Source: a virus (lineage: Duplodnaviria; Heunggongvirae; Uroviricota; Caudoviricetes). From it: a stretch of 19,900 bases of DNA. Under the pieces are notes generated by a model. It saw nothing but the letters and a program-made list of their open reading frames with translations, did not search any database and was not told where the DNA came from. The position numbers and the translations under genes are program-made. This document shows positions 1-19,900 of the stretch, piece by piece; the stretch's first letter is position 1; each line of letters begins with the position of its first letter. Location of the stretch: the IMG/VR virus record IMGVR_UViG_2734482551_000002; one strand, written 5' to 3'.

Positions 1-257
1 GGTTATCGCTCGCCACGGGAATATCTGCGGCAGCGGGCTTGTAATGGGTTAAGTGATAACAGATGTCTGGAAATATAGGGGCAAATCCAATCGTCGCCGT
101 ATTCCCGTATTAACAGAGACCGTAGCCCGACGGGGAACTCCTTCTGCGCGAGTGTGCGGGAATAATCAAAAACGATGCACACCGGGGTTACCGGGTACAC
201 ATATTTCATCATGCCAGCGAGTCCGGTTCTGGCACGGAAGAAACCGGACGTTATGAT

Positions 258-668
258 TTAGTGCGGAAATATTTGTGTAGTGTTCTGTATGTTCTCAGTA
301 AAGAGTAATGAATTATCAAAGGTATAGTAATACCTTTTGTTTTCGTGGATATTTGTAATCCATCTGAAAACCCCTGCTGTAGCAAGATTTTTCCTGTATT
401 CGTAAAATGATAACTCTCCTGATTTGAATCCTTTTAAGGTGGCTTCTATAAGGCATTTATTTTTTGAAAATCTTACATTTACAACCTTACCCTGTCCTTT
501 TATTAAAACCGTATTATCGTTTTCAAGAACAAGATGAATATTCTCTGTGGCTAAATAGTAAATGTAATGTGAGACATTGTGACGTTTTAGTTCAGAATAA
601 AACCAGTGATAGTTTAAATTATTTCGCACTTTATCGAATATTTGTTTAAAAATGGCAACCTGAGCCAT
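258..668 (-). CDS. DUF1398-family protein (YbcV/YdfO-like; homolog of the lambda right-end ORF next to bor)
   Basis: Minus-strand ORF with stop at 258-260. The ORF track starts it at 683 ([12 protein letters not shown]...), but the second in-frame ATG at 668 has a GGAAGG Shine-Dalgarno-like motif 7 nt upstream and gives a 136-aa product ([18 protein letters not shown]...[24 protein letters not shown]). This closely resembles my recollection of the lambda/DLP12/Qin DUF1398 proteins. The gene is markedly AT-rich compared with the flanking phage genes. Confidence 0.6.
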
Positions 669-725
669 TGTAGTACCTTCCATGTGATATGAGGGGGCGT
701 AGTCTGCACGATTATCTAAATTGCT

Positions 726-959
726 TCAATCTGGTCTAACCTGTTTTCTGAGCAATTCAGTAATGTCACTCTTTTCTTTGTTTGCTTCAGGCGAAACTCT
801 TTTTTCTGAGCACAGTCTCCGGCGGCAGGCTTCAATGACCCAGGCTGAGAAATTCCCGGACCCTTTTTGAACAAGAGCGATGTTAATTTGTTCAATCATT
901 TGGTTAGGAAAGCGGATGTTGCGGGTTGTTGTTCTGCGGGTTCTGTTCTTCGTTGACAT
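726..959 (-). CDS. Small basic protein with Arc/MetJ-like ribbon-helix-helix signature (resembles the lambda right-end small ORF / YlcI-type DUF3950 proteins)
   Basis: 77-aa minus-strand ORF starting at ATG 957-959 with AGGG 8 nt upstream. The N-terminus (MSTKNRTRRTTTRNIRFPNQMIEQINIALVQKGSGNFSAWVIEACRRRL) is near-identical to my recollection of the small ORF just inside the lambda right end. The pattern basic tail, beta-strand (RNIRFP), helix (NQMIEQINIAL), turn (GSGNFS), helix (AWVIEACRRRL) fits a ribbon-helix-helix fold. The C-terminal 25 aa differ from the lambda version. Confidence 0.55.
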   Translation of the reverse strand: MSTKNRTRRTTTRNIRFPNQMIEQINIALVQKGSGNFSAWVIEACRRRLCSEKRVSPEANKEKSDITELLRKQVRPD

Positions 960-1126
960 GAGGTTGCCCTGTATTCAGTGTCGCTGATTTGTATTGTCTG
1001 AAGTTGTTTTTACGTTAAGTTGATGCAGATCAATTAATACGATACCTGCGTCATAATTGATTATTTGACGTGGTTTGATGGCGTAGATGCACGTTGTGAC
1101 ATGTAGATGATAATTATTATCATTTT

Positions 1127-1184
1127 GCGGGTCCTTTCCGGCGATCCGACAGGTTACGGGGCGGAAGGCGCGCGGGTTTTCGCT
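1127..1184 (+). other. cosQ/cosN region of the cos packaging site; cosN carries a non-lambda right half
   Basis: GGGTCCTTTCCGGCGATCCGACAGGTTACG followed by GGGCGGAAGGCG (1159-1170) and then CGCGGGTTTTCGCTATTTATG. The flanks match lambda on both sides, but the 12-nt cohesive-end position reads GGGCGGAAGGCG where lambda has GGGCGGCGACCT, as I remember it. Confidence 0.7.
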
Positions 1185-1347: not shown

Positions 1348-1867
1348 ATGGAAGTCAACAAAAAGCAGCTGGCTGACATTTTCGGTGCGAGTATCCGTAC
1401 CATTCAGAACTGGCAGGAACAGGGAATGCCCGTTCTGCGAGGCGGTGGCAAGGGTAATGAGGTGCTTTATGACTCTGCCGCCGTTATAAGATGGTATGCC
1501 GAAAGGGATGCTGAAATTGAGAACGAAAAGCTGCGCCGGGAAGTTGAAGAACTGCGGCAGGCCAGCGAGACAGATCTCCAGCCAGGGACTATTGAGTACG
1601 AACGCCATCGACTTACGCGTGCGCAGGCCGACGCACAGGAGCTGAAAAATGCCAGAGACTCCGCTGAAGTGGTGGAAACCGCATTCTGTACTTTCGTGCT
1701 GTCGCGGATCGCAGGTGAAATTGCCAGTATTCTCGACGGGATCCCCCTGTCGGTGCAGCGGCGTTTTCCGGAACTGGAAAACCGACATGTTGATTTCCTG
1801 AAACGGGATATCATCAAAGCCATGAACAAAGCAGCCGCGCTGGATGAACTGATACCGGGGTTGCTGA

Positions 1868-1893
<26 letters not shown>
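1348..1893 (+). CDS. nu1: Terminase small subunit Nu1
   Basis: 181-aa ORF MEVNKKQLADIFGASIRTIQNWQEQGMPVLRGGGKGNEVLYDSAAV..., essentially identical to lambda gpNu1, with an N-terminal winged helix-turn-helix. Same length as lambda nu1 and located directly after cosB. Confidence 0.97.
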
Positions 1894-5574
<3,681 letters not shown>

Positions 5575-5594
<20 letters not shown>

Positions 5595-6930
5595 TCTCCC
5601 GCATATTGCCAGCATGGCTTTTAATGAGCCGCTGATGCTTGAACCCGCCTATGCGCGGGTTTTCTTTTGTGCGCTTGCAGGCCAGCTTGGGATCAGCTGC
5701 CTGACGGATGCAGTATCCGGCGACAGCCTGACTGCCGGAGAGGCACCCGCGGCGCTGGCGTTATCCGGTGATGATGACGGACCACGACAGGCCCGCAGTT
5801 ATCAGGTAATGAACGGCATCGCCGTGCTGCCGGTGTCCGGCACGCTGGTCAGCCGGACGCGGGCGCTGCAGCCGTACTCGGGGATGACCGGTTACAACGG
5901 CATTATCGCCCGTCTGCAACAGGCTGCCAGCGACCCGATGGTGGACGGCATTCTGCTCGATATGGACACACCGGGCGGAATGGTGGCGGGAGCATTTGAC
6001 TGCGCTGACATCATCGCCCGTGTGCGTGACATAAAGCCGGTATGGGCGCTGGCCAATGACATGAACTGCAGCGCAGGTCAGCTGCTTGCCAGTGCCGCCT
6101 CCCGGCGTCTGGTCACGCAGACCGCCCGGACAGGCTCCATCGGCGTCATGATGGCTCACAGTAATTACGGCGCTGCACTGGAGAAACAGGGCGTGGAAAT
6201 CACGCTGATTTACAGCGGCAGCCATAAGGTGGATGGCAACCCCTACAGCCATCTACCGGATGATGTCCGGGAAACATTGCAGTCCCGGATGGATGCAACC
6301 CGCCGGATGTTTGCACAGAAGGTGTCGGCATATACCGGCCTGTCCGTGCAGGCTGTGCTGGATACCGAGGCTGCAGTGTACAGCGGTCAGGAGGCCATTG
6401 ATGCCGGACTGGCTGATGAACTTGTTAACAGTACCGATGCGNNNNNNNNNNNNNNNNNNNNNNNNNNNNNNNNNNNNNNNNNNNNNNNNNNNNNNNNNNN
6501 NNNNNNNNNNNNNNNNNNNNNNNNNNNNNNNNNNNNNNNNNNNNNNNNNNNNNNNNNNNNNNNNNNNNNNNNNNNNNNNNNNNNNNNNNNNNNNNNNNNN
6601 NNNNNNNNNNNNNNNNNNNNNNNNNNNNNNNNNNNNNNNNNNNNNNNNNNNNNNNNNNNNNNNNNNNNNNNNNNNNNNNNNNNNNNNNNNNNNNNNNNNN
6701 NNNNNNNNNNNNNNNNNNCTCACGGACGCGAAGAACAGGCACGCGTGCTGGCCGAAACCCCCGGTATGACCGTGGAAACGGCCCGCCGTATTCTGGCCGC
6801 AGCACCACAGAGTGCACAGACGCGCAGTGACACTGCGCTGGATCGTCTGATGCAGGGGGCACCGGCACCGCTGGCTGCAGGTAACCCGGCATCTGATGCC
6901 GTTAACGATTTGCTGAACACACCAGTGTAA
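5575..6930 (+). CDS. C: Prohead protease / minor capsid protein C (S49-type), interrupted by a masked N block at 6442-6718
   Basis: Starts at GTG 5575, overlapping the B 3' end as in lambda. The product VTAELRNLPHIASMAFNEPLMLEPAYARVFFCALAGQLGIS... matches lambda gpC. The frame continues through the N run and resumes with HGREEQARVLAETPGMTVETARRILAAAPQSAQTRSDTALDRLMQGAPAPLAAGNPASDAVNDLLNTPV, the lambda C/Nu3 C-terminus. The gene is about 36 nt longer than I remember lambda C to be, if the N-run length is real. Confidence 0.9.
6289..6930 (+). CDS. nu3: Scaffolding protein Nu3 (in-frame internal start within C), partly masked
   Basis: In-frame ATG at 6289 (MDATRRMFAQKVSAYTGLSVQAVLDTEAAVYSGQEAIDAGLADELVNSTDA...) at the position equivalent to lambda nu3, sharing the C stop. 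The central part is hidden by the N block. Confidence 0.8.
   Translation: MDATRRMFAQKVSAYTGLSVQAVLDTEAAVYSGQEAIDAGLADELVNSTDAXXXXXXXXXXXXXXXXXXXXXXXXXXXXXXXXXXXXXXXXXXXXXXXXXXXXXXXXXXXXXXXXXXXXXXXXXXXXXXXXXXXXXXXXXXXXXHGREEQARVLAETPGMTVETARRILAAAPQSAQTRSDTALDRLMQGAPAPLAAGNPASDAVNDLLNTPV
6442..6718. other. Masked block (277 N) inside C/nu3
   Basis: Continuous run of N. Flanking sequence is in frame with C on both sides. Confidence 0.99.
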
Positions 6931-6939
6931 GGGATGTTT

Positions 6940-7272
6940 ATGACGAGCAAAGAAACCTTTACCCATTACCAGCCGCTGGGCAATAGTGACCCGGCTCATA
7001 CCGCAACCGCGCCCGGCGGATTGAGTGCGAAAGCGCCTGCAATGACCCCGCTGATGCTGGACACCTCCACCCGTAAGCTGGTTGCGTGGGATGGCACCAC
7101 CGACGGTGCTGCCGTTGGCATTCTTGCGGTTGCTGCTGACCAGACCAGCACCACACTGACGTTCTACAAGTCCGGCACGTTCCGTTATGAGGATGTGCTC
7201 TGGCCGGAGGCTGCCAGCGACGAGACGAAAAAACGGACCGTGTTTGCCGGAACGGCAATCAGCATCGTTTAA
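6940..7272 (+). CDS. D: Head decoration protein D
   Basis: 110-aa product [110 protein letters not shown], near-identical to lambda gpD. I chose ATG 6940 (AAGGGA 6 nt upstream) over the track start at 6934. Confidence 0.96.
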
Positions 7273-7292
7273 CTTTACCCTTCATCACTAAA

Positions 7293-7314
7293 GGCCGCCT
7301 GTGTGGCTTTTTTT
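7293..7314 (+). terminator. D-E intergenic hairpin followed by a T7 run (terminator-like or RNA-stability element)
   Basis: GGCCGCCTGTGTGGC (5-bp stem with one G-U pair) followed by TTTTTTT at 7308-7314, directly between the D stop and the E start. A similar hairpin exists at this position in lambda. Weak as an intrinsic terminator. Confidence 0.4.
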
Positions 7315-7327
7315 ACGGGATTTTTTT

Positions 7328-8353
7328 ATGTCGATGTACACAACCGCCCAGCTGCTGGCGGCAAATGAGCAGAAATTTAAGTTTGATCCGCTGTTTCTGC
7401 GTCTCTTTTTCCGTGAGAGCTATCCCTTCACTACGGAGAAAGTCTATCTCTCACAAATTCCGGGACTGGTAAACATGGCGCTGTACGTTTCGCCGATTGT
7501 TTCCGGTGAGGTTATCCGTTCCCGTGGCGGCTCCACCTCTGAATTTACGCCGGGATATGTCAAACCCAAGCATGAGGTGAATCCGCAGATGACCCTGCGT
7601 CGCCTGCCGGATGAAGATCCGCAGAATCTGGCGGACCCGGCTTACCGCCGCCGTCGCATCATCATGCAGAACATGCGTGACGAAGAGCTGGCCATTGCTC
7701 AGGTCGAAGAGATGCAGGCAGTTTCTGCCGTGCTCAAGGGCAAATACACCATGACCGGTGAAGCCTTCGATCCGGTTGAGGTGGATATGGGCCGCAGTGC
7801 GGCGAACAACATCACACAGTCCGGCGTCACGGAGTGGAGCAAGCGTGACAAGTCCACGTATGACCCGACCGACGATATCGAAGCCTACGCGCTGAACGCC
7901 AGCGGTGTGGTGAATATCATCGTGTTTGACCCGAAAGGCTGGGCGCTGTTCCGTTCCTTCAAAGCCGTCAAGGAGAAGCTGGATACCCGTCGCGGCTCTC
8001 ATTCCGAGCTGGAGACAGCGGTAAAAGACCTGGGCAAAGCGGTGTCCTATAAGGGAATGTATGGCGATGTGGCCATCGTCGTGTATTCCGGACAGTACGT
8101 GGAAAACGGCGTCAAAAAGAACTTCCTGCCGGACAACACGATGGTGCTGGGGAACACTCAGGCTCGCGGTCTGCGCACCTATGGCTGCATTCAGGATGCG
8201 GACGCACAGCGCGAAGGCATTAACGCTTCTGCCCGTTACCCGAAAAACTGGGTGACCACCGGCGATCCGGCGCGTGAGTTCACCATGATTCAGTCAGCAC
8301 CGCTGATGCTGCTGGCTGATCCTGATGAGTTCGTGTCCGTTCAACTGGCGTAA
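7328..8353 (+). CDS. E: Major capsid protein E
   Basis: 341-aa product from ATG 7328 (MSMYTTAQLLAANEQKFKFDPLFLRLFFRESYPFTTEKVYLSQIPGLVNMALYV...EFVSVQLA), near-identical to lambda gpE. The track start at 7301 is an upstream in-frame extension not used in lambda. Confidence 0.97.
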   Translation: MSMYTTAQLLAANEQKFKFDPLFLRLFFRESYPFTTEKVYLSQIPGLVNMALYVSPIVSGEVIRSRGGSTSEFTPGYVKPKHEVNPQMTLRRLPDEDPQNLADPAYRRRRIIMQNMRDEELAIAQVEEMQAVSAVLKGKYTMTGEAFDPVEVDMGRSAANNITQSGVTEWSKRDKSTYDPTDDIEAYALNASGVVNIIVFDPKGWALFRSFKAVKEKLDTRRGSHSELETAVKDLGKAVSYKGMYGDVAIVVYSGQYVENGVKKNFLPDNTMVLGNTQARGLRTYGCIQDADAQREGINASARYPKNWVTTGDPAREFTMIQSAPLMLLADPDEFVSVQLA

Positions 8354-8355
8354 TC

Positions 8356-8382
8356 ATGGCCCTTCGGGGCCATTTTCTCTCT
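8356..8382 (+). other. E-FI intergenic perfect hairpin with TTCG loop
   Basis: ATGGCCC TTCG GGGCCAT (7-bp perfect stem, TTCG tetraloop-like loop) at 8356-8373, followed by TTTCTCTCT, between the E stop and the FI start. Confidence 0.45.
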
Positions 8383-8394
8383 GTGGAGGAGTTC

Positions 8395-8793
8395 ATGACG
8401 AAAGATGAACTGATTGCCCGTCTTCAGGAGCTGGGTGAGCAATTGAACCGCGATGTCAGTTTGACGGGAACGAAAGAAGAACTGGCGCTTCGTGTGGCAG
8501 AGCTGGAAGAAGAGCTTGATGACACGGATGAAACTGCCGGTCAGGACACCCCTCTCAGCCGGGAAAATGTGCTGACCGGGCATGAAAATGAGGTGGTATC
8601 AGCGCAGCCGGATACCGTGATTCAGGATACGGCTGAACTGGTCACGGTCGTGGCACTGGTGACGCTGCATACTGATGCACTTCACGCCACGCGGGATAAA
8701 CCTGTGGCATTTGTGCTGCCGGGAACGGCGTTTCGTGTCTCTGCCGGTGTGGCAGCCGAAATGACAGAGCGCGGCCTGGCCAGAATGCAATAA
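8395..8793 (+). CDS. FI: DNA packaging protein FI
   Basis: 132-aa product from ATG 8395 (MTKDELIARLQELGEQLNRDVSLTGTKEELALRVAELEEELDDTDETAGQDTPLSRENVLTGHENEV...ERGLARMQ) matching lambda gpFI. The track start at 8356 lies inside the E-FI intergenic hairpin. Confidence 0.95.
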   Translation: MTKDELIARLQELGEQLNRDVSLTGTKEELALRVAELEEELDDTDETAGQDTPLSRENVLTGHENEVVSAQPDTVIQDTAELVTVVALVTLHTDALHATRDKPVAFVLPGTAFRVSAGVAAEMTERGLARMQ

Positions 8794-8804
8794 CGGGAGG
8801 CGCT

Positions 8805-9158
8805 GTGGCTGATTTCGATAACCTGTTCGATGCTGCCATTGCCCGCGCCGATGAAACGATACGCGGGTACATGGGAACGTCAGCCACCATGACATCCGGT
8901 GAGCAGTCAGGTGCGGTGATACGTGGTGTTTTTGATGACCCTGAAAATATCAGCTATGCCGGACAGGGCGTGCGCGTTGAAGGCTCCAGCCCGTCCCTGT
9001 TTGTCCGGACTGATGAGGTGCGGCAGCTGCGGCGTGGAGACACGCTGACCATCGGTGAGGAAAATTTCTGGGTAGATCGGGTTTCGCCGGATGATGGCGG
9101 AAGTTGTCATCTCTGGCTTGGACGGGGCGTACCGCCTGCCGTTAACCGTCGCCGCTGA
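8805..9158 (+). CDS. FII: Head-tail connector (head completion) protein FII
   Basis: 117-aa ORF from GTG 8805 (MADFDNLFDAAIARADETIRGYMGTSATMTSGEQSGAVIRGVFDDPENISYAGQGVRVEGSSPSLFVRTDEVRQLRRGDTLTIGEENFWVDRVSPDDGGSCHLWLGRGVPPAVNRRR) matching lambda gpFII. Confidence 0.95.
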   Translation: MADFDNLFDAAIARADETIRGYMGTSATMTSGEQSGAVIRGVFDDPENISYAGQGVRVEGSSPSLFVRTDEVRQLRRGDTLTIGEENFWVDRVSPDDGGSCHLWLGRGVPPAVNRRR

Positions 9159-9169
9159 AAGGGGGATGT

Positions 9170-9748
9170 ATGGCCATAAAAGGTCTTGAGCAGGCCGTTG
9201 AAAACCTCAGCCGTATCAGCAAAACGGCGGTGCCCGGTGCCGCCGCAATGGCCATTAACCGCGTTGCTTCATCCGCGATATCGCAGTCTGCGTCACAGGT
9301 TGCCCGTGAGACAAAGGTACGCCGGAAACTGGTAAAGGAAAGGGCCAGGCTGAAAAGGGCCACGGTCAAAAATCCGCAGGCCAGAATCAAAGTTAACCGG
9401 GGGGATTTGCCCGTAATCAAGCTGGGTAATGCGCGGGTTGTCCTGTCCCGCCGCAGGCGTCATAAAAAGGGGCAGCGTTCATCCCTGAAAGGTGGCGGCA
9501 GCGTGCTTGTGGTGGGTAACCGTCGTATTCCCGGCGCGTTTATTCAGCAACTGAAAAACGGCCGGTGGCATGTTATGCAGCGTGTGGCCGGGAAAAACCG
9601 TTACCCCATTGATGTGGTGAAAATCCCGATGGCGGTGCCGCTGACCACGGCGTTTAAACAGAATATTGAACGGATACGGCGTGAACGTCTTCCGAAAGAG
9701 CTGGGCTATGCGCTGCAGCATCAACTGAGAATGGTAATAAAGCGATGA
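9170..9748 (+). CDS. Z: Tail completion protein Z
   Basis: 192-aa ORF MAIKGLEQAVENLSRISKTAVPGAAAMAINRVASSAISQSASQVARETKVRRKLVKERARLK... matching lambda gpZ. Confidence 0.95.
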   Translation: MAIKGLEQAVENLSRISKTAVPGAAAMAINRVASSAISQSASQVARETKVRRKLVKERARLKRATVKNPQARIKVNRGDLPVIKLGNARVVLSRRRRHKKGQRSSLKGGGSVLVVGNRRIPGAFIQQLKNGRWHVMQRVAGKNRYPIDVVKIPMAVPLTTAFKQNIERIRRERLPKELGYALQHQLRMVIKR

Positions 9749-10140
9749 AACATACTGAACTCCGTGCAGCCGTACTGGATGCACTGGAGAAGCATGACAC
9801 CGGGGCGACGCTTTTTGATGGTCGCCCCGCTGTTTTTGATGAGGAAGATTTTCCGGCAATTGCCGTTTATCTCACCGGCGCTGAATACACGGGCGAAGAG
9901 CTGGACAGCGATACCTGGCAGGCGGAGCTGCATATTGAAGTTTTCCTGCCTGCTCAGGTGCCGGATTCAGAGCTGGATTCGTGGATGGAGTCCCGGATTT
10001 ATCCTGTGATGAGCGATATCCCGGCACTGTCAGATTTGATCACCAGTATGGTGGCCAGCGGCTATGACTACCGGCGCGACGATGATGCGGGCCTGTGGAG
10101 TTCAGCCGATCTGACTTATGTCATTATCTATGAAATGTGA
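9745..10140 (+). CDS. U: Tail tube terminator protein U
   Basis: 131-aa [74 protein letters not shown]... matching lambda gpU. ATGA overlap with the Z stop. Confidence 0.96.
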
Positions 10141-10147
10141 GGACGCT

Positions 10148-10888
10148 ATGCCTGTACCAAATCCTACAATGCCGGTGAAAGGTGCCGGGACCACCCTGTG
10201 GGTTTATAAGGGGAGCGGTGACCCTTATGCGAACCCGCTTTCAGACGTTGACTGGTCGCGTCTGGCAAAAGTTAAAGACCTGACGCCCGGCGAACTGACC
10301 GCTGAGTCCTATGACGACAGCTATCTCGATGATGAAGATGCAGACTGGACTGCGACCGGGCAGGGGCAGAAATCTGCCGGAGATACCAGCTTCACGCTGG
10401 CGTGGATGCCCGGAGAGCAGGGGCAGCAGGCGCTGCTGGCGTGGTTTAATGAAGGTGATACCCGTGCCTATAAAATCCGCTTCCCGAACGGCACGGTCGA
10501 TGTGTTCCGTGGCTGGGTCAGCAGTATCGGTAAGGCGGTGACGGCGAAGGAGGTGATTACCCGCACGGTGAAGGTCACCAATGTGGGACGTCCGTCGATG
10601 GCAGAAGATCGCAGCACGGTGACGGCGACGACCGGCATGACGGTGACACCCGCCAGTGCTTCCGTAGTGAAAGGGCAGAGCACCACGCTGACCGTGGCAT
10701 TCCAGCCGGATGGCGCAACCGACAAGAGCTTCCGTGCGGTGTCTGCGGATAAAACAAAAGCCACCGTGTCGGTCAGTGGTATGACCATCACCGTGAAAGG
10801 TGTTGCTGCAGGCAAGGTCAACATTCCGGTCGTATCTGGTAATGGTGAGTTTGCTGCGGTTGCAGAAATCAACGTCACCGCCAGTTAA
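10148..10888 (+). CDS. V: Major tail tube protein V (with C-terminal Ig-like Big_2 domain)
   Basis: 246-aa product from ATG 10148 ([73 protein letters not shown]...), near-identical to lambda gpV. The C-terminal approximately 90 aa ([31 protein letters not shown]...NVTAS) form the Ig-like decoration domain. The track start at 10118 is an upstream extension. Confidence 0.96.
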
Positions 10889-10903
10889 TCCGGAGAGTCA
10901 GCG

Positions 10904-11326
10904 ATGTTCCTGAAAACCGAATCATTTGAACATAACGGTGTGACCGTCACGCTTTCTGAACTGTCAGCCCTGCAGCGTATTGAGCATCTCGACCTGATGA
11001 AACGGCAGGCAGAACAGGCGGAGTCAGACAGCAACCGGAAGTTTACTGTGGAAGACGCCATCAGAACCGGCGCTTTTGTGGTTGCGATGTCCCTGTGGCA
11101 TAACCATCCGAAGAAGACGCAGATGCCGTCCATGAATGAAGCCGTTAAACAGATTGAGCAGGAAGTGCTTACCACCTGGCCCACAGAGGCAATTTCTCAT
11201 GCTGAAAACGTGGTGTACCGGCTGTCCGGTATGTATGAGTTTGTGGTGAATGATGCTCCTGAACAGGCAGAGGACGCCGGGCCTGCAGAGCCTGTTTCTG
11301 CGGGAAAGTGTTCGACGGTGAGCTGA
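10904..11326 (+). CDS. G: Tail assembly chaperone G
   Basis: 140-aa ORF MFLKTESFEHNGVTVTLSELSALQRIEHLDLMKRQAEQAESDSNRKFTVEDAIRTG...PVSAGKCSTVS matching lambda gpG. It ends just after the slippery heptamer. Confidence 0.96.
   Translation: MFLKTESFEHNGVTVTLSELSALQRIEHLDLMKRQAEQAESDSNRKFTVEDAIRTGAFVVAMSLWHNHPKKTQMPSMNEAVKQIEQEVLTTWPTEAISHAENVVYRLSGMYEFVVNDAPEQAEDAGPAEPVSAGKCSTVS
11302..11308 (+). promoter_or_regulatory. Programmed -1 ribosomal frameshift slippery sequence G GGA AAG (G to G-T)
   Basis: GGGAAAG at 11302-11308, with GGA and AAG as in-frame G codons (codon starts 11303 and 11306). The -1 frame continues as GKVFDGELSF... into T. This is identical to the lambda G/GT frameshift site. 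Confidence 0.9.
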
Positions 11327-11742
11327 GTTTTGCCCTGAAACTGGCGCGTGAGATGGGGCGACCCGACTGGCGCGCCATGCTTGCCGGGATGTCATCCACG
11401 GAGTATGCCGACTGGCACCGCTTTTACAGTACCCATTATTTTCATGATGTTCTGCTGGATATGCACTTTTCCGGGCTGACGTACACCGTGCTCAGCCTGT
11501 TTTTCAGCGATCCGGAGATGCATCCGCTGGATTTCAGTCTGCTGAACCGGCGCGAGGCTGACGAAGAGCCTGAAGATGATGTGCTGATGCAGAAAGCGGC
11601 AGGGCTTGCCGGAGGTGTCCGCTTTGGCCCGGACGGGAATGAAGTTATCCCCGCTTCCCCGGATGTGGCGGACATGACGGAGGATGACGTAATGCTGATG
11701 ACAGTATCAGAAGGGATCGCAGGAGGAGTCCGGTATGGCTGA
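11308..11742 (+). CDS. T: T portion of the G-T tail assembly chaperone fusion (translated only by a -1 frameshift from G; fusion spans 10904-11742)
   Basis: The -1 frame ORF (F)DGELSFALKLAREMGRPDWRAMLAGMSSTEYADWHRFYSTHYFHDVLLDMHFSGLTYTVLSLFFSDPEMHPLDFSLLNRREADEEPEDD... matches lambda gpT. It has no independent start context and begins at the GGGAAAG slip site. Confidence 0.92.
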   Translation: MFDGELSFALKLAREMGRPDWRAMLAGMSSTEYADWHRFYSTHYFHDVLLDMHFSGLTYTVLSLFFSDPEMHPLDFSLLNRREADEEPEDDVLMQKAAGLAGGVRFGPDGNEVIPASPDVADMTEDDVMLMTVSEGIAGGVRYG

Positions 11743-14296
11743 ACCGGTAGGCGATCTGGTCGTTGATTTGAGTCTGGATGCGGCCAGATTTGACGAGCAG
11801 ATGGCCAGAGTCAGGCGTCATTTTTCCGGTACGGAAAGTGATGCGAAAAAAACAGCGGCAGTCGTTGAACAGTCGCTGAGCCGACAGGCGCTGGCTGCAC
11901 AGAAAGCGGGGATTTCCGTCGGGCAGTATAAAGCCGCCATGCGTATGCTGCCTGCACAGTTCACCGACGTGGCCACGCAGCTTGCAGGGGGGCAGAATCC
12001 CTGGCTGATCCTGCTGCAACAGGGTGGTCAGGTTAAGGACTCCTTCGGCGGGATGATCCCCATGTTCAGGGGGCTTGCCGGCGCGATCACCCTGCCGATG
12101 GTGGGGGCCACCTCGCTGGCGGTGGCGACCGGTGCGCTGGCGTATGCCTGGTATCAGGGCAACTCAACCCTGTCCGATTTCAACAAAACGCTGGTCCTTT
12201 CCGGTAATCAGGCGGGACTGACGGCAGATCGTATGCTGGTCCTGTCCAGAGCCGGGCAGGCGGCAGGGCTGACGTTTAACCAGACCAGCGAGTCACTCAG
12301 CGCACTGGTTAAGGCGGGGGTAAGCGGTGAGGCTCAGATTGCGTCCATCAGCCAGAGTGTGGCGCGTTTCTCCTATGCATCCGGCGTGGAGGTGGACAAG
12401 GTCGCTGAAGCCTTCGGGAAGCTGACCACAGACCCGACGTCGGGGCTGACGGCGATGGCACGCCAGTTCCATAACGTGACGGCGGAGCAGATTGCGTATG
12501 TTGCTCAGTTGCAGCGTTCCGGCGATGAAGCCGGGGCATTGCAGGCGGCGAACGAGGCCGCAACGAAAGGGTTTGATGACCAGACCCGCCGCCTGAAAGA
12601 GAACATGGGCACGCTGGAGACCTGGGCAGACAGGACTGCACGTGCATTCAAATCCATGTGGGATGCGGTGCTGGATATTGGTCGTCCTGATACCGCGCAG
12701 GAGATGCTGATTAAGGCAGAGGCTGCGTTTAAGAAAGCAGACGACATCTGGAATCTGCGCAAGGATGATTATTTCGTTAACGATGAAGCACGGGCGCGTT
12801 ACTGGGATGATCGTGAAAAAAAACGCCTGGAGCGGGATGCAGCCCAAAAGAGGGTAGATCAACAGCGTCAACAGGACAAAAATGCGCAGCAGCAGAGCGA
12901 TACCGAAGCGTCACGGCTGAAATATACCGAAGAGGCGCAGAAGGCTTACGAACGGCTGCAGACGCCGCTGGAGAAATATACCGCCCGTCAGGAAGAACTG
13001 AACAAGGCACTGAAAGACGGAAAAATCCTGCAGGCAGATTACAACACGCTGATGGCGGCGGCGAAAAAGGATTATGAAGCGACGCTGAAAAAGCCGAAAC
13101 AGTCCGGCGTGAAGGTGTATGCGGGCGATCGTCAGGAAGACAGTGCTCATGCGGCCCTGCTGACGCTTCAGGCAGAACTCCGGACGCTGGAGAAGCATGC
13201 CGGAGCGAATGAGAAAATCAGCCAGCAGCGCCGGGATTTGTGGAAGGCAGAAAGTCAGTTCGCGGTACTGGAGGAGGCGGCACAACGTCGCCAGCTGTCC
13301 GCACAGGAGAAATCCCTGCTGGCGCATAAAGACGAGACGCTGGAGTACAAACGCCAGCTGGCTGCACTTGGTGACAAGGTTACGTATCAGGAGCACCTGA
13401 ATGCGCTGGCGCAGCAGGCGGATAAATTCGCACAGCAGCAACGGGCAAAACGGGCAGCCATTGATGCGAAAAACCGGGGGCTGACTGACCGGCAGGCAGC
13501 GCGGGAAGCCACGGAACAGCGCCTGAAGGAACAGTATGGCGATAATCCTCTGGCGCTGAATAACGTCATGTCAGAGCAGAAAAAGACCTGGGCGGCTGAA
13601 GACCAGCTTCGCGGGAGCTGGATGGCAGGCCTGAAGTCCGGCTGGAGTGAGTGGGAAGAGAGCGCCACGGACAGTATGTCACAGGTTAAAAGTGCAGCCA
13701 CGCAGACCTTTGATGGTATTGCACAGAATATGGCGGCGATGCTGACCGGCAGTGAACAGAACTGGCGCAGCTTCACCCGCTCCGTGCTGTCCATGATGAC
13801 AGAAATTCTGCTTAAGCAGGCAATGGTGGGGATTGTCGGGAGTATCGGCAGCGCCATTGGCGGGGCTGTTGGTGGCGGCGCATCCGCGTCAGGTGGTACA
13901 GCCATTCAGGCCGCTGCGGTGAAATTCCATTTTGCAACCGGGGGATTTACGGGAACCGGCGGCAAATATGAGCCAGCGGGGATTGTTCACCGTGGTGAAT
14001 TTGTCTTCACGAAGGAGGCAACCAGCCGGATTGGCGTGGGGAATCTCTACCGGCTGATGCGCGGCTATGCGGAAGGTGGTTATGTGGGCGGTGCCGGAAG
14101 TCCGGCGCAGATGCGGCGGGCTGAAGGCATTAATTTTAATCAGAACAATCACGTGGTGATTCAGAACGACGGTACGAATGGTCTGCCAGGTCCACAGATG
14201 ATGAAGGCCGTGTATGACATGGCCCGCAAGGGTGCCCGTGATGAAATTCAGACACAGATGCGTGATGGTGGCCTGTTCTCCGGAGGTGGACGATGA
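11735..14296 (+). CDS. H: Tail tape measure protein H
   Basis: 853-aa ORF MAEPVGDLVVDLSLDAARFDEQMARVRRHFSGTESDAKKTAAVVEQSLSRQALAAQKAGISVGQYKAAMRMLPAQFTD..., the same length as lambda gpH and matching along its length, with coiled-coil and Gly-rich segments. Local substituted patches are noted in the findings. Confidence 0.96.
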   Translation: MAEPVGDLVVDLSLDAARFDEQMARVRRHFSGTESDAKKTAAVVEQSLSRQALAAQKAGISVGQYKAAMRMLPAQFTDVATQLAGGQNPWLILLQQGGQVKDSFGGMIPMFRGLAGAITLPMVGATSLAVATGALAYAWYQGNSTLSDFNKTLVLSGNQAGLTADRMLVLSRAGQAAGLTFNQTSESLSALVKAGVSGEAQIASISQSVARFSYASGVEVDKVAEAFGKLTTDPTSGLTAMARQFHNVTAEQIAYVAQLQRSGDEAGALQAANEAATKGFDDQTRRLKENMGTLETWADRTARAFKSMWDAVLDIGRPDTAQEMLIKAEAAFKKADDIWNLRKDDYFVNDEARARYWDDREKKRLERDAAQKRVDQQRQQDKNAQQQSDTEASRLKYTEEAQKAYERLQTPLEKYTARQEELNKALKDGKILQADYNTLMAAAKKDYEATLKKPKQSGVKVYAGDRQEDSAHAALLTLQAELRTLEKHAGANEKISQQRRDLWKAESQFAVLEEAAQRRQLSAQEKSLLAHKDETLEYKRQLAALGDKVTYQEHLNALAQQADKFAQQQRAKRAAIDAKNRGLTDRQAAREATEQRLKEQYGDNPLALNNVMSEQKKTWAAEDQLRGSWMAGLKSGWSEWEESATDSMSQVKSAATQTFDGIAQNMAAMLTGSEQNWRSFTRSVLSMMTEILLKQAMVGIVGSIGSAIGGAVGGGASASGGTAIQAAAVKFHFATGGFTGTGGKYEPAGIVHRGEFVFTKEATSRIGVGNLYRLMRGYAEGGYVGGAGSPAQMRRAEGINFNQNNHVVIQNDGTNGLPGPQMMKAVYDMARKGARDEIQTQMRDGGLFSGGGR

Positions 14297-14622
14297 AAAC
14301 CTTCCGCTGGAAAGTGAAACCCGGTATGGATGTGGCTTCGGCCCCTTCTGTAAGAAAGGTGCGCTTTGGTGATGGCTATTCCCAGCGAGCGCCTGCCGGG
14401 CTGAATGCCAACCTGAAAACGTACAGCGTGACGCTTTCTGTCCCCCGTGAGGAGGCCATGGTACTGGAGTCGTTTCTGGAAGAGCACGGGGGCTGGAAAG
14501 CCTTTCTGTGGACGCCGCCTTATGAGTGGCGGCAGATAAAGGTGACCTGCGCAAAATGGTCGTCGCGGGTCAGTATGCTGCGTGTTGAGTTCAGCGCAGA
14601 GTTTGAACAGGTGGTGAACTGA
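14293..14622 (+). CDS. M: Tail tip protein M
   Basis: 109-aa ORF MKTFRWKVKPGMDVASAPSVRKVRFGDGYSQRAPAGLNANLKTYSVTLSVPREEAMVLESFLEEHGGWKAFLWTPPYEWRQIKVTCAKWSSRVSMLRVEFSAEFEQVVN matching lambda gpM. ATGA overlap with the H stop. Confidence 0.96.
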   Translation: MKTFRWKVKPGMDVASAPSVRKVRFGDGYSQRAPAGLNANLKTYSVTLSVPREEAMVLESFLEEHGGWKAFLWTPPYEWRQIKVTCAKWSSRVSMLRVEFSAEFEQVVN

Positions 14623-15207
14623 TGCAGGATATCCGGCAGGAAACACTGAATGAATGCACCCGTGCGGAGCAGTCGGCCAGCGTGGTGCTCTGGGAAATCG
14701 ATCTGACAGAGGTCGGTGGAGAACGTTATTTTTTCTGTAATGAGCAGAACGAAAAAGGTGAGCCGGTCACCTGGCAGGGGCGACAGTATCAGCCGTATCC
14801 CATTCAGGGGAGTGGTTTTGAACTGAATGGCAAAGGCACCAGTACGCGCCCCACGCTGATGGTTTCTAACCTGTACGGTATGGTCACCGGGATGGCGGAA
14901 GATCTACAGAGTCTGGTCGGCGGAACGGTGGTCCGGCGTAAGGTTTACGCCCGTTTTCTGGATGCGGTGAACTTCGTCAACGGAAACAGTGACGCCGATC
15001 CGGAGCAGGAGGTGATCAGCCGCTGGCGCATTGAGCAGTGCAGCGAACTGAGCGCGGTGAGTGCCTCTTTTGTACTGTCCACGCCGACGGAAACAGATGG
15101 CGCTGTTTTTCCGGGACGTATCATGCTGGCCAACACCTGCACCTGGACCTATCGCGGCGATGAGTGCGGTTATCACGGTCCGGCGGTCGCGGATGAATAT
15201 GACCAGC
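14622..15207 (+). CDS. L: Tail tip protein L (visible 5' portion only; 3' end lies in the masked block)
   Basis: Starts at ATG 14622, overlapping the M stop (TGATG). The product MQDIRQETLNECTRAEQSASVVLWEIDLTEVGGERYFFCNEQNEKGEPVTWQGRQYQPYPIQGSGFELNGKGTSTRPTLMVSNLYGMVTGMAED...CTWTYRGDECGYHGPAVADEYDQ matches lambda gpL up to the N run at 15208. The expected end, about 115 nt further on, is masked. Confidence 0.9.
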
Positions 15208-15501
15208 NNNNNNNNNNNNNNNNNNNNNNNNNNNNNNNNNNNNNNNNNNNNNNNNNNNNNNNNNNNNNNNNNNNNNNNNNNNNNNNNNNNNNNNNNNNNN
15301 NNNNNNNNNNNNNNNNNNNNNNNNNNNNNNNNNNNNNNNNNNNNNNNNNNNNNNNNNNNNNNNNNNNNNNNNNNNNNNNNNNNNNNNNNNNNNNNNNNNN
15401 NNNNNNNNNNNNNNNNNNNNNNNNNNNNNNNNNNNNNNNNNNNNNNNNNNNNNNNNNNNNNNNNNNNNNNNNNNNNNNNNNNNNNNNNNNNNNNNNNNNN
15501 N
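15208..15501. other. Masked block (294 N) covering the L 3' end, the L-K junction and the region upstream of the annotated K start
   Basis: Continuous run of N. L is open on entry and the K frame is open on exit. Confidence 0.99.
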
Positions 15502-15519
15502 CCGGAGGCGTATTTCCGT

Positions 15520-16119
15520 ATGTCGCCGGAAGACTGGCTGCAGGCAGAGATGCAGGGTGAGATTGTGGCACTGGTCCACAGCCACCCCGGTGGTCTGCCC
15601 TGGCTGAGTGAGGCCGACCGGCGGCTGCAGGTGCAGAGTGATTTGCCGTGGTGGCTGGTCTGCCGGGGGGCGATTCACAAGTTCCGCTGTGTGCCACATC
15701 TTACCGGGCGGCGCTTTGAGCACGGGGTGACGGACTGTTACACGCTGTTCCGGGATGCTTACCATCTGGCGGGGATTGAGATGCCGGATTTTCATCGTGA
15801 GGATGACTGGTGGCGTCACGGTCAGAATCTCTATCTGGATAATCTGGAGGCCACAGGGCTGTATCAGGTGCCGTTGTCAGCGGCGCAGCCGGGCGATGTG
15901 CTGCTGTGCTGTTTTGGTTCATCGGTGCCGAATCATGCCGCCATTTACTGTGGTGACGGCGAGCTGCTGCACCATATTCCTGAACAACTGAGTAAACGAG
16001 AGAGGTACACCGACAAATGGCAGCGACGCACACACTCCCTCTGGCGTCACCGGGCATGGCACGCATCTGCCTTTACGGGGATTTGCAACGATTTGGCCGC
16101 CGCATCGACCTTCGTGTGA
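15520..16119 (+). CDS. K: Tail tip assembly protein K (JAMM/MPN motif plus NlpC/P60-like Cys-His region)
   Basis: 199-aa product from ATG 15520 (MSPEDWLQAEMQGEIVALVHSHPGGLPWLSEADRRLQVQSDLPWWLVCRG...DCYTLFRDAYHLAG...HAAIYCGDGELLHHIPEQ...AASTFV) matching lambda gpK. It contains the HSHPGG-x-S-x2-D JAMM-type motif. The frame is open upstream (PEAYFR, 15502-15519) back to the N block. Confidence 0.92.
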   Translation: MSPEDWLQAEMQGEIVALVHSHPGGLPWLSEADRRLQVQSDLPWWLVCRGAIHKFRCVPHLTGRRFEHGVTDCYTLFRDAYHLAGIEMPDFHREDDWWRHGQNLYLDNLEATGLYQVPLSAAQPGDVLLCCFGSSVPNHAAIYCGDGELLHHIPEQLSKRERYTDKWQRRTHSLWRHRAWHASAFTGICNDLAAASTFV

Positions 16120-16688
16120 AAACGGGTGCCGAAGCCATCCGGGCGATGGCCACACAGCTCCCTGCGTTTCGTCAGAAGCTGAGCGACGGCTGGTATCAGG
16201 TGCGTATTGCCGGGCAGGATGTTAGCACGTCCGGATTAACGGCACAGTTACATGAGGCTCTGCCTGACGGCGCTGTGATTCATATTGTTCCCAGAGTCGC
16301 CGGGGCCAAGTCAGGTGGTGTATTCCAGATTGTCCTGGGAGCAGCCGCCATTGCCGGATCATTCTTTACCGCCGGAGCCACCCTTGCAGCATGGGGGGCT
16401 GCCATTGGTGCCGGTGGTATGACCGGCATTCTGTTTTCTCTCGGTGCCAGTATGGTGCTCGGCGGTGTGGCTCAGATGCTGGCACCGAAAGCCAGAACTC
16501 CCCGCACACAGACAACGGATAACGGTAAGCAGAACACCTATTTCTCCTCACTGGATAACATGGTTGCCCAGGGCAATGTTATGCCTGTTCTGTATGGTGA
16601 AATGCGCGTGGGGTCACGTGTGGTATCTCAGGAGATCAGCACGGCAGACGAAGGGGACGGTGGTCAGGTTGTGGTGATTGGTCGCTGA
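16017..16688 (+). CDS. I: Tail tip assembly protein I
   Basis: 223-aa ORF MAATHTLPLASPGMARICLYGDLQRFGRRIDLRVKTGAEAIRAMATQLPAFRQKLSDGWYQVRIAGQDVSTSGLTAQLHEALPDGAVIHIVPRVAGAKSGG... matching lambda gpI. It overlaps the K 3' end in another frame, as in lambda. Confidence 0.95.
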   Translation: MAATHTLPLASPGMARICLYGDLQRFGRRIDLRVKTGAEAIRAMATQLPAFRQKLSDGWYQVRIAGQDVSTSGLTAQLHEALPDGAVIHIVPRVAGAKSGGVFQIVLGAAAIAGSFFTAGATLAAWGAAIGAGGMTGILFSLGASMVLGGVAQMLAPKARTPRTQTTDNGKQNTYFSSLDNMVAQGNVMPVLYGEMRVGSRVVSQEISTADEGDGGQVVVIGR

Positions 16689-16748
16689 TGCAAAATGTTT
16701 TATGTGAAATCGCCTCCGGGCGGTTTTATCGTTTATGGAGCATGACGA

Positions 16749-19700: not shown

Positions 19701-19900
19701 AAGGGCATGCTGGAGGCGACCCAGGTCAGAGGGGATTTCGTTAAAGCTGTATCAAAAGCCTTCCCGAAAAAAGTCGGTACGTGGGGTAACACGGAAACAC
19801 CAGACGGTACGGTTACAGTCACCATCAGCGATGATCATAACTTTGACCGCCAGATTATTATTCCGCCCATTATTTTTAACGGTATAGCGTATGACGATCC
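16749..19900 (+). CDS. J: Central tail fiber / host specificity protein J (5' 1050 codons; continues beyond window end)
   Basis: ATG at 16749 ([85 protein letters not shown]...). I read the frame codon by codon from 17991 to 19900 and spot-checked it at 17340; no stop was found. It is absent from the ORF track only because it has no stop inside the window. Near-identical to lambda J until about codon 975, then divergent. Confidence 0.93.

Follow-up and report, generated by a model that had tools for sequence, protein, structure and literature searches.

The two minus-strand genes analysed here correspond almost identically to ynfO and ydfO of E. coli prophages, a pair already known and long annotated, which is dispensable, optional cargo. 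They lie within a phage sequence of 19,900 nucleotides (the window). On balance, they are probably accessory genes in a lambda-like prophage, each transcribed separately and assorting independently of the other, which here share a cassette of ∼850 bp between the lysis genes and cos.

Identity of the gene pair

An ORF check placed two co-oriented ORFs on the minus strand, at 959..726 (77 aa, ATG) and 683/668..258 (141 or 136 aa), with a gap of 57 nt if the second begins at 668 and 42 nt if it begins at 683, exactly as the original prediction had described them. We prefer the start at 668 because an invariant GGAAGG is found 7 nt upstream of it and because the RefSeq annotation gives a protein of 136 aa; this Shine–Dalgarno-like sequence (676..681, minus strand) is the same in all aligned alleles. 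The upstream gene (726..959, minus strand) is of the ynfO/ylcI type and encodes a DUF3950 protein (Pfam PF13132, E 2e-20, 72.8 bits against 25; NCBIfam YlcI_YnfO_N, NF041551, 35.2 bits against 30). The downstream gene (258..668, minus strand) is of the ydfO/ybcV type and encodes a DUF1398 protein (PF07166, 147 bits against a cut-off of 22, spanning profile positions 1–119 of 119). Both family assignments are far above chance.

Purifying selection acts on both genes, with dN/dS of 0.07–0.13 for the DUF3950 core, measured at dS of 0.76–1.1, and of 0.22–0.37 for DUF1398. The idea that the DUF3950 ORF is kept only as cos-related DNA was rejected on the strength of that ratio at dS ∼1 and of the occurrence of DUF3950 away from lambda-type cos.

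The two ORFs share a frame, with only one TGA between them, and ‘fused’ entries of 233 and 177 aa (P0014 and P0010) exist in the protein database. Read-through or fusion is an artefact: the underlying contigs carry the TGA, which the gene caller misread as Trp, and the same-frame relation is lost by ±1 nt in three other loci (L008, L009 and L011). The shared frame is incidental.

The 1.4 kb region has a match in 5211 of 5426 complete genomes, and the ynfO/ydfO-type pair is annotated in thousands of E. coli genomes, many with the labels ‘DUF1398 / YlcI-YnfO / nohD’. The earlier statement that the pair has no established function stands, as we found no experimental assignment of function to either family in the literature, and the 2024 y-ome survey counts both K-12 genes, ynfO and ydfO, among the uncharacterised.

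The genes form a presence/absence cassette beside cos

We surveyed 78 prophage loci picked by cos allele alone (an exact 26-mer in 78 IMG/VR contigs). Both genes were present at 12 of the 78 and DUF3950 only at three; the others carried different cargo or none. Blastn of these loci and alignment of the empty sites delimited a cassette of ∼850 bp (approximately 251..1100), comprising both genes and the region upstream of DUF3950; empty-site alleles join ∼250 to ∼1100 and share flanks with the filled alleles. The G+C content is 31.4% in the DUF1398 gene (GC3 30.7%) and 44.4% in the DUF3950 gene, against 56.9% in the remainder of the window (1348–19900). The DUF1398 gene is thus as AT-rich as had been claimed, and presence/absence among homologous genomes together with deviant composition (31% and 44% versus 57% G+C) are traits that the unit shares with morons. 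The proposal that it is horizontally acquired, AT-rich cargo is borne out by a unit that is polymorphic for presence in a variable slot beside cos and opposite to the late operon.

On one side the cassette adjoins the cos region (1129..1169, plus strand), recognized by comparison with lambda alleles. Within it, we take GGGTCCT (1129–1135) to be a cosQ-like element and GGGCGGAAGGCG (1158–1169) to be a variant of the cosN cohesive end. On the other side, a repeat search found a hairpin, GTCCGGTT-13 nt-AACCGGAC (221..249), directly beyond the DUF1398 stop; it has no U-run on the minus strand, and its conservation in empty-site alleles places it in the flank, outside the cassette. Neither the promoter/terminator scan nor the repeat search found a canonical terminator beyond DUF1398. 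Next, 170 nt downstream of the DUF1398 stop, comes an IS3-family insertion sequence, of which the window has the end (1..89): bases 1–89 match the terminal part of a transposase pseudogene annotated as IS3-family in another locus (L003), and homology to phage relatives begins at base 90. The location originally proposed, between a lysis/bor region and cos, was right on the cos side; on the other side the window has no lysis or bor gene and ends in the IS3-family element, and in the closest phage relative that side is occupied by KilA-N and hypothetical genes, not bor. Rfam gave no credible match in bases 1–1500.

Related loci in Qin, lambda and DLP12

As anticipated, lambda (lambdap78), DLP12 (ybcV) and Qin (ydfO) have homologues in the corresponding position. 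Qin carries the same two families in the same order and orientation (ynfO–ydfO, b4533–b1549; L012/L013), with the DUF1398 start 60 nt beyond the last DUF3950 codon, and both genes lie between lysis-side genes and a Nu1 homologue. Its DUF3950 protein is 97% identical to the one here and its DUF1398 protein 76% identical; the DUF1398 protein here is another variant, 100% identical in phages PhiR49_1, Kati, Chlobot and ev099. The window also differs from the Qin locus in its nearby IS3-family element, and its cosN allele is unlike that of lambda.

Lambda and DLP12 have a homologous DUF1398 gene preceded by the same promoter-like block and Shine–Dalgarno sequence, and the DNA for the first 55 DUF3950 residues and the upstream region is 95% identical. 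They differ in that ∼613 bp with the plus-strand gene ybcW/p79 takes the place of window positions 743–796, and they therefore have another DUF3950 tail (YlcI, 64 aa) and a distance of ∼0.7 kb between the genes. Lambda has the DUF3950 ORF, but NC_001416 does not annotate it. Labels such as ‘putative envelope protein’ and ‘head protein’ on these homologues are unsupported annotation carry-over.

The lambda genes bor and lom are ‘more DNA’ units in the sense of Hendrix, and encode envelope proteins with known phenotypes. The pair resembles them in being transcribed oppositely or autonomously in the late region, in having a deviant base composition, in being present in some related phages and absent from others, and in not being needed for lytic growth. 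bor and lom have been described as lysogen-expressed (PMC7067206). Unlike them, the two proteins here have no signal peptide, membrane segment or known phenotype, and a clear terminator was not found at the pair.

DUF3950 and DUF1398 assort independently

Among phage records, DUF3950 occurs in 155 and DUF1398 in 43, a ∼3.6-fold difference. DUF3950 is present without DUF1398 in phages of the Nu1/A type (L066) and of the HNH/TerS/TerL type (L067, BP-4795), and in PICI-like satellites, where it lies inside the alpA-to-primase operon. In the two different terminase systems it has the same position, directly before the packaging genes and in opposite orientation to them. DUF1398 is found alone in chromosomal contexts, in the ycgX clade, in Raoultella and in metagenome contigs, and also away from prophages. 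DUF3950 is absent from 52 of the 63 loci that have the same cos allele, a Nu1 homologue and enough flank, and is therefore not required for packaging or late expression. The two genes do often occur together in Nu1-type prophages (in seven of the 10 DUF3950-positive Nu1-type loci with enough flank), and some functional link may therefore exist.

An apparently wide taxonomic spread, with hits in ‘genomes’ of Actinobacteria, Bacteroidota and Firmicutes, was set aside as probable contamination by lambda control DNA, because these hits sit on contigs of ∼3.5 kb or 48 kb that are 76% identical to the query, as is lambda.

The DUF3950 protein

The DUF3950 protein is very basic (pI 10.9), with a basic N-terminal arm and a conserved IRFP motif. 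In the AF2 model residues 13–18 are extended and residues 19–32 and 34–52 are helical. R-F-P is invariant and is followed by the two predicted helices, the second of which opens with N-F-S-x-W; across both subfamilies F37, S38 and W40 do not vary and N36 hardly does. From about residue 50 the C-terminal tail is variable, and tails are mosaic among homologues.

Like Arc, Mnt and CopG, the protein is small and begins with a basic arm. A strand motif of the form hydrophobic-R-hydrophobic-P follows (NIRFP, compared with NLRWP in Arc), and then two helices that a Gly-containing turn connects, the second capped by N/S. It differs from them in having no significant sequence, profile or structure match to them. 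Searches of the PDB by phmmer and hmmsearch gave nothing significant, the profile searches returning no match at all, and a Pfam search with 17 and 22 family members gave no RHH family even at E 10. Alignment with hhalign to Arc and Mnt gave no significant result, although it placed NIRFP on the NLRWP of Arc (P 0.011–0.019 over 23–24 columns, below significance), and the best Foldseek matches to the model were RHH-like (a TCP domain and ParD2) but had E > 5. The ‘RHH-like’ label given to this protein is plausible from its strand–helix–helix layout, reached significance in no test, and comes from inference rather than from a database; the model is consistent with a ribbon–helix–helix fold.

Scanning and comparative alignment revealed no convincing sigma-70 promoter upstream of DUF3950, the only shared feature being a GTAAAA block. 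The repeat search found an inverted repeat, ATCAATTAATACG / CGTCATAATTGAT (1029..1061), 70–100 nt before the DUF3950 start, which is kept in all aligned Nu1-type loci and is a candidate operator. In K-12, ylcI is transcribed and forms a convergent excludon with ybcW (PMC12288877).

The DUF1398 protein and its promoter-like element

The DUF1398 protein is basic (pI 9.4) and cytoplasmic, and neither it nor the DUF3950 protein has a signal peptide or membrane segment. It is ∼78% identical to YdfO, for which a structural genomics NMR solution structure is available (PDB 2HH8), and has the YdfO fold, a duplicated alpha2-beta3 unit that forms a single six-stranded sheet, rich in aromatic residues. 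A search for structural neighbours of this fold returned none that was informative.

A promoter scan and alignment of upstream regions identified a sigma-70 promoter-like element for this gene (711..738, minus strand; TAGACC-16 nt-GATAAT). Its −10 is kept in the Qin, DLP12 and lambda alleles; the −35 is weak. A PdhR-box-like sequence, ATCTGGTCTAACCTGTT (729..745), overlaps the −35 and the last DUF3950 codons, and the block is kept in the alignment. Both the promoter-like element and the PdhR-like block are retained also where ybcW splits the two genes, and the PdhR site reported in K-12 between ybcV and ybcW, AtcTGGTctgACCtcTT, is the counterpart of window positions 729..745. In K-12, ybcV mRNA is down 10-fold in a pdhR mutant (PMC7660256), and ybcV is up > 1000-fold when T4 MotB perturbs H-NS (PMC7827196). 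The homologue ydfO is induced by ionic liquid (PMC4077768), and the same paper cites YdfO overexpression as raising oxidative-stress resistance. All these expression results concern K-12 homologues. Cells overexpressing ybcV from the ASKA collection are viable and have a glycogen phenotype (PMC2853380). In lambda, CRISPRi against lambdap78 gave an efficiency of plating of ∼1.9 (PMC10695390), and lytic growth does not require this DUF1398 homologue; for ybcV, the Keio collection includes a ybcV::kan strain.

Discussion

The proposal that the pair is a functionally coupled module, for example one of toxin–antitoxin type, was not supported by this analysis. In a type II version of it, the upstream RHH protein would be antitoxin and autorepressor and DUF1398 the toxin, an arrangement suggested by the antitoxin-first order, the 57 nt spacing and the small size of both proteins. 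The DNA-binding-like N-terminal core and C-terminal tail of DUF3950 do resemble RHH antitoxins, and ParD2 is among its best, weak, Foldseek matches. But the obligatory co-occurrence expected of type II partners is lacking: the two families differ in frequency among phage records, DUF1398 is widespread without a DUF3950 partner, each gene is found alone, and ybcW splits the pair in lambda and DLP12. There the DUF3950 tail has been replaced while DUF1398 remains intact, and this tail, which is mosaic, is where an antitoxin would contact its toxin. DUF1398 has, moreover, a promoter-like element of its own. YdfO could be overproduced for NMR, cells overexpressing ybcV are viable, and YdfO overexpression is, as mentioned above, cited as protective in oxidative stress. 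PADLOC-DB v2 defence HMMs gave no match to either protein at E ≤ 0.01, and we regard a toxin–antitoxin function as very improbable. The same search bears on the suggestion that one or both proteins protect the lysogen or the phage, through anti-phage defence, superinfection exclusion or anti-defence, which we consider unlikely. A variable prophage cargo slot with many uncharacterised alternative genes, a presence/absence pattern, an orientation opposite to the late operon, as for bor, and DUF3950 homologues common to lambdoid phages and to the PICI-like satellites that parasitise such phages would all suit a role of this kind; the lack of a PADLOC family, of any nuclease, NTPase, membrane or sensor-like domain and of any phenotype in the literature, and the finding of DUF1398 on its own in chromosomes, away from prophages, argue against it. 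A match of DUF1398 to Csx23 (E 0.025, 12.6 bits) is not credible, and DUF3950 had no match at all.

DUF3950 might instead serve the life cycle of the element, as a counter-transcribed regulator at the lysis/packaging junction, with DUF1398 as unrelated neighbouring cargo; gating of late read-through or of packaging-gene expression would be examples of such a role. Its conserved position and orientation before the packaging genes of two terminase systems, its place in the alpA-to-primase operon of PICI-like satellites, the very strong purifying selection on it and an upstream region that contains an inverted repeat and abuts cosQ all favour this view. Its absence from most same-cos loci with a Nu1 homologue and the failure to identify a target site weigh against it, and we give it only a small chance of being correct. 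A related and distinctly doubtful reading is that DUF3950 is an unrecognised, strongly conserved RHH-type regulator of cross-talk or conflict between prophage, incoming phage and satellite, for example by repressing the late or packaging transcription of a competitor, and that DUF1398 is an orphan-fold effector acquired alongside. On this reading, lambdoid phages with two packaging systems and the capsid-forming PICI-like satellites that exploit such phages would all retain DUF3950 as a lone counter-transcribed gene in a long operon.

If the two are, as we favour, separately transcribed accessory genes, gene order suggests how they would be expressed. Both would be antisense to the Q-dependent late transcript, so that in the resident prophage they would depend entirely on their own promoters for expression, and in lytic growth they would be overrun. 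DUF3950 would most likely be a small dimeric DNA-binding protein of the RHH kind, contacting DNA through its basic N-terminal arm and IRFP strand, and would probably regulate its own promoter and some target tied to the mobile element rather than DUF1398. DUF1398 would be AT-rich foreign cargo with its own activator-dependent promoter, carrying a PdhR-like box at the −35, and would probably be silenced by H-NS under ordinary conditions. We infer that its product most likely binds a host macromolecule rather than acting in catalysis, and that it modulates host stress physiology and would not be needed for phage growth.

Prophage genes of the ynfO/ydfO type occur in most E. coli genomes, and finding them again here is routine. 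Little is known of either family; both are part of the K-12 ‘y-ome’, and both are found in lambda. The toxin–antitoxin idea can be dropped, and each gene is better studied by itself: DUF1398 with its own, predicted, PdhR-linked promoter, and DUF3950 with the counter-transcribed placement that it keeps in phages and satellites and that leads to a concrete hypothesis.

The two genes and their relatives

The window comprises the left arm of a lambda-like prophage, in which ORFs and the annotations of close relatives place Nu1 at 1348–1893, terminase A at 1868–3793, and head and tail genes beyond. The two genes considered here lie on the minus strand. The first (959..726) encodes a 77-aa protein of DUF3950, the YlcI/YnfO family (PF13132, 72.8 bits against 25; NF041551, 35.2 against 30). 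The second (683 or 668..258) encodes 141 or 136 aa, depending on the start. The 136-aa product, which is the RefSeq form and begins at ATG 668, matches DUF1398 over the whole domain (PF07166; 147 bits, cut-off 22) and shares ∼78% identity with E. coli YdfO (E 3e-67), for which there is an NMR structure (PDB 2HH8). A Shine–Dalgarno sequence, GGAAGG (681–676, minus), lies 7 nt ahead of this ATG and is unchanged in all alleles of the upstream-region alignment. Measured against divergent alleles, dN/dS was 0.07–0.13 at dS 0.76–1.1 for codons 1–52 of the DUF3950 gene, and 0.22–0.37 for the DUF1398 gene; both are real coding genes. Neither is new: annotations exist for both, and what they do is a gap recognised for a long time. 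The DUF1398 family is called 'head protein' by PHROGs and 'putative envelope protein' in older records. We find these names unsupported: signal peptide and membrane segment are absent from the DUF1398 protein, the protein is basic (pI 9.4), and knock-down of its lambda homologue, lambdap78, leaves plating unaffected, the gene being non-essential for plating (PMC10695390).

The original prediction described the two-gene arrangement correctly overall, including gaps of 57 and 42 nt for starts at 668 and 683, and the AT-richness of the DUF1398 gene (31.4% G+C) relative to the morphogenesis genes (56.9% over bases 1348–19900); the DUF3950 gene has 44.4% G+C. The lysis/bor neighbourhood it proposed is not present, as the window contains no bor or lysis gene: bases 1–89 belong to the end of an IS3-family element, and phage relatives are homologous from base 90 on. 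This insertion lies 170 nt past the DUF1398 stop and cuts a small conserved minus-strand ORF (90–212; motif PVCIVFDYSxTLxQKEFPVGLRS) that is present in 21 loci with the window's cos allele. The same junction is seen in the IMG/VR contigs L088, L133 and L144.

As predicted, homologues occupy the same place in lambda and in the cryptic prophages DLP12 and Qin. The ynfO–ydfO arrangement of K-12 Qin (loci L012/L013) is that of the window, and the RefSeq annotation 'DUF1398 / YlcI-YnfO / nohD' recurs in very many E. coli genomes. A 1.4 kb query was matched in 5211 of 5426 complete genomes, with at least 80% of its length covered in 2446. The temperate phages PhiR49_1, Kati, Chlobot and ev099 carry an identical DUF1398 protein, and the DUF3950 protein of PhiR49_1 is identical too. 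In lambda and DLP12, window 89–742 is kept at 83% and 797–1400 at 95% identity, whereas 743–796 is replaced by ∼613 bp containing plus-strand ybcW/lambdap79; the lambda DUF3950 protein therefore keeps its first 55 residues and has another, YlcI-like tail. The corresponding lambda ORF (NC_001416 48139–48303, minus; hits H72/H73) has no annotated feature in the reference record, although its product shares 94.5% identity with the window protein over the first 55 residues and the family is under strong purifying selection.

Actinobacteria, Bacteroidota and Firmicutes also yield apparent homologues (loci L016–L037 and L050–L052). These lie on ∼3.5 kb or 48 kb contigs of lambda sequence in assemblies of unrelated bacteria, for example Arcanobacterium, Brevibacillus, Flavobacterium, Pedobacter, Cohnella and Kitasatospora. 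We reject a wide taxonomic spread, as these contigs look like lambda control DNA carried into assemblies, with a link to the nanopore control amplicon. Such contigs make the host range of both families seem wider. Among them is the 3,566 bp 'plasmid' of Arcanobacterium hippocoleae, published as a plasmid and discussed in PMC11171008.

A presence/absence cassette in a variable slot next to cos

The cohesive-end variant at 1158–1169, GGGCGGAAGGCG, differs from lambda GGGCGGCGACCT at 5 of 12 positions; cosN and the cosQ-like GGGTCCT are assigned by comparison with the lambda sequence. An exact cosN-region 26-mer of the window retrieved 78 prophage contigs from IMG/VR (loci L074–L151), chosen blind to both genes, so this variant of cos is natural and widespread in E. 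coli prophages. Both genes are present in 12 of the 78 and the DUF3950 gene alone, with another tail, in three; the remainder have neither, and 52 of these have at least 1.2 kb of flank. Empty sites keep window 90 to ∼250, including the hairpin at 221–249, and join ∼250, within tens of bases, to ∼1100 onward, where the palindrome GATAATTATT..TCA is followed by the cosQ-like GGGTCCT and cosN. These junctions define a presence/absence cassette of ∼850 bp that consists of both genes and 140 nt upstream of the DUF3950 start. In other alleles the slot holds different cargo, in either orientation; examples are DUF4406, DUF6979, an AlpA-like protein and several proteins of 70–290 aa that have no family. 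The proposed accessory slot between lysis genes and cos is thus borne out and is variable, with filled and empty alleles and alternative cargo, and the interpretation of the genes as accessory cargo was right.

At the right-hand cassette edge, a strong sigma-70 promoter-like match (1096–1123, plus; GTGACA-16 nt-TATCAT, 10/12) points toward Nu1. It shares bases with the palindrome ATGATAATTATTATCAT, and the cosQ-like GGGTCCT follows immediately to its right.

The two genes are at most a loose functional pair

The evidence says that DUF3950 and DUF1398 are not a functional pair, or are a loose one at most. In tblastn searches, DUF3950 was found in 155 phage records and DUF1398 in 43. Without DUF1398, DUF3950 adjoins Nu1/A in locus L066, and HNH/TerS/TerL in locus L067 and in Stx phage BP-4795; in all three it is a lone gene antisense to the late operon, with the lysis cassette on one side and packaging genes on the other. 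A second subfamily (∼40% identical, 67 aa, its inter-helix loop enlarged by an insertion) occurs in Klebsiella, Salmonella, Serratia, Yersinia, Dickeya and others, housed in PICI-like satellites with integrase, AlpA, primase, capsid, protease and portal genes (loci L070–L073). Here again the gene is alone and on the opposite strand, within the alpA-to-primase gene string; some records annotate an overlapping 324-aa ORF in its stead. DUF1398 without DUF3950 is found in the ycgX clade (44–53% identity; for genomic context see PMC3509220), in Raoultella (37%), and on metagenome contigs with ordinary chromosomal neighbours. 'Fused' DUF3950–DUF1398 metagenome proteins result from translation of the TGA between the ORFs as Trp. 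That the two ORFs share a frame here is not a conserved feature.

DUF1398 also has its own promoter-like element, as a single conserved block lies upstream of it in both the adjacent (Qin/window) and the split (lambda/DLP12) forms, with a homology breakpoint directly upstream. The block runs from AGGT(C/T)AGACCAGATTGAAG through a −10-like GATAAT (716–711) to the Shine–Dalgarno sequence, and the element itself is TAGACC-16 nt-GATAAT (738–711, minus). Within the block, ATCTGGTCTAACCTGTT (729–745) is the counterpart of the K-12 PdhR site mapped between ybcV and ybcW; there, mutation of pdhR lowers ybcV mRNA 10-fold (PMC7660256). The DUF3950 ORF also contains a 14-nt direct repeat, CTGTTTTCTGAGCA / CTTTTTTCTGAGCA (741–754 and 799–812), whose copies are 58 nt apart and differ in reading frame. 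One copy is just upstream of the −35 of the DUF1398 promoter-like element; the repeat may be due to chance.

The original prediction had raised a toxin–antitoxin-like or exclusion module. Each gene being found alone, and DUF1398 having its own promoter-like element, a coupled module of this kind is not supported. A toxin–antitoxin module is further disfavoured because toxicity is apparently lacking, and because DUF3950 residues 1–50 are nearly invariant while the tails beyond them are mosaic and unrelated in sequence, a poor fit to a cognate antitoxin tail, which should not vary so. A defence or exclusion role, with nothing positive in its favour, has a low probability.

Predicted structures

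The AlphaFold2 model of DUF1398 is confident (pLDDT 89.5) and has two tandem helix-helix-strand-strand-strand units. The family-conserved residues (L27, Y35, T41, N43, G99, W103 and Y114) are mostly aromatic or structural and do not suggest an active site. The DUF3950 monomer model is modest (pLDDT 67; ∼80 over residues 20–50), with an extended N-terminus, helices at 19–32 and 34–52, and a shorter one at 64–73 that follows a disordered linker. Several features are compatible with a ribbon-helix-helix (RHH) fold: an invariant R16-F17-P18 ahead of helix 1, N-F-S-x-W capping helix 2, and a basic arm (residues 1–18, pI about 12). Hhalign places NIRFP on the Arc strand NLRWP (Arc sequence checked against PDB 1ARQ), and the best Foldseek matches are an RHH-like TCP domain and ParD2, at E > 5. 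None of the tests of an RHH relation was significant; PDB profile searches were empty and Pfam RHH families gave no match even at E 10. An RHH-like DNA-binding protein is the most likely reading of DUF3950.

Expression and possible roles

By established lambda biology and the gene order of relatives, Q-dependent late transcription of the prophage reads rightward across this region and on into Nu1. Both genes are antisense to that transcript, so that while the prophage is resident only promoters of their own would drive them; after induction, late transcription would oppose them. Literature on the K-12 homologues, including the PdhR dependence of ybcV, is in keeping with conditional expression in the prophage state. 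Convergent transcriptional overlap of ylcI with ybcW was seen in at least half of RNA-seq samples (PMC12288877). Both ybcV and ybcW rise > 1000-fold when T4 MotB perturbs H-NS silencing (PMC7827196), which fits the 31% G+C of the DUF1398 gene. An ionic liquid induces ydfO strongly but transiently, and the same paper cites greater resistance to oxidative stress when ydfO is overexpressed (PMC4077768).

We propose, as the likeliest account, that these are two autonomous accessory genes. DUF1398 would be an H-NS-silenced, PdhR-responsive cytoplasmic protein that alters host physiology through partner binding, and DUF3950 a small predicted DNA-binding regulator with a target in the mobile element or the host, rather than DUF1398 specifically. 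The most useful lead is that DUF3950 keeps its counter-transcribed position both in lambdoid phages and in PICI-like satellites.
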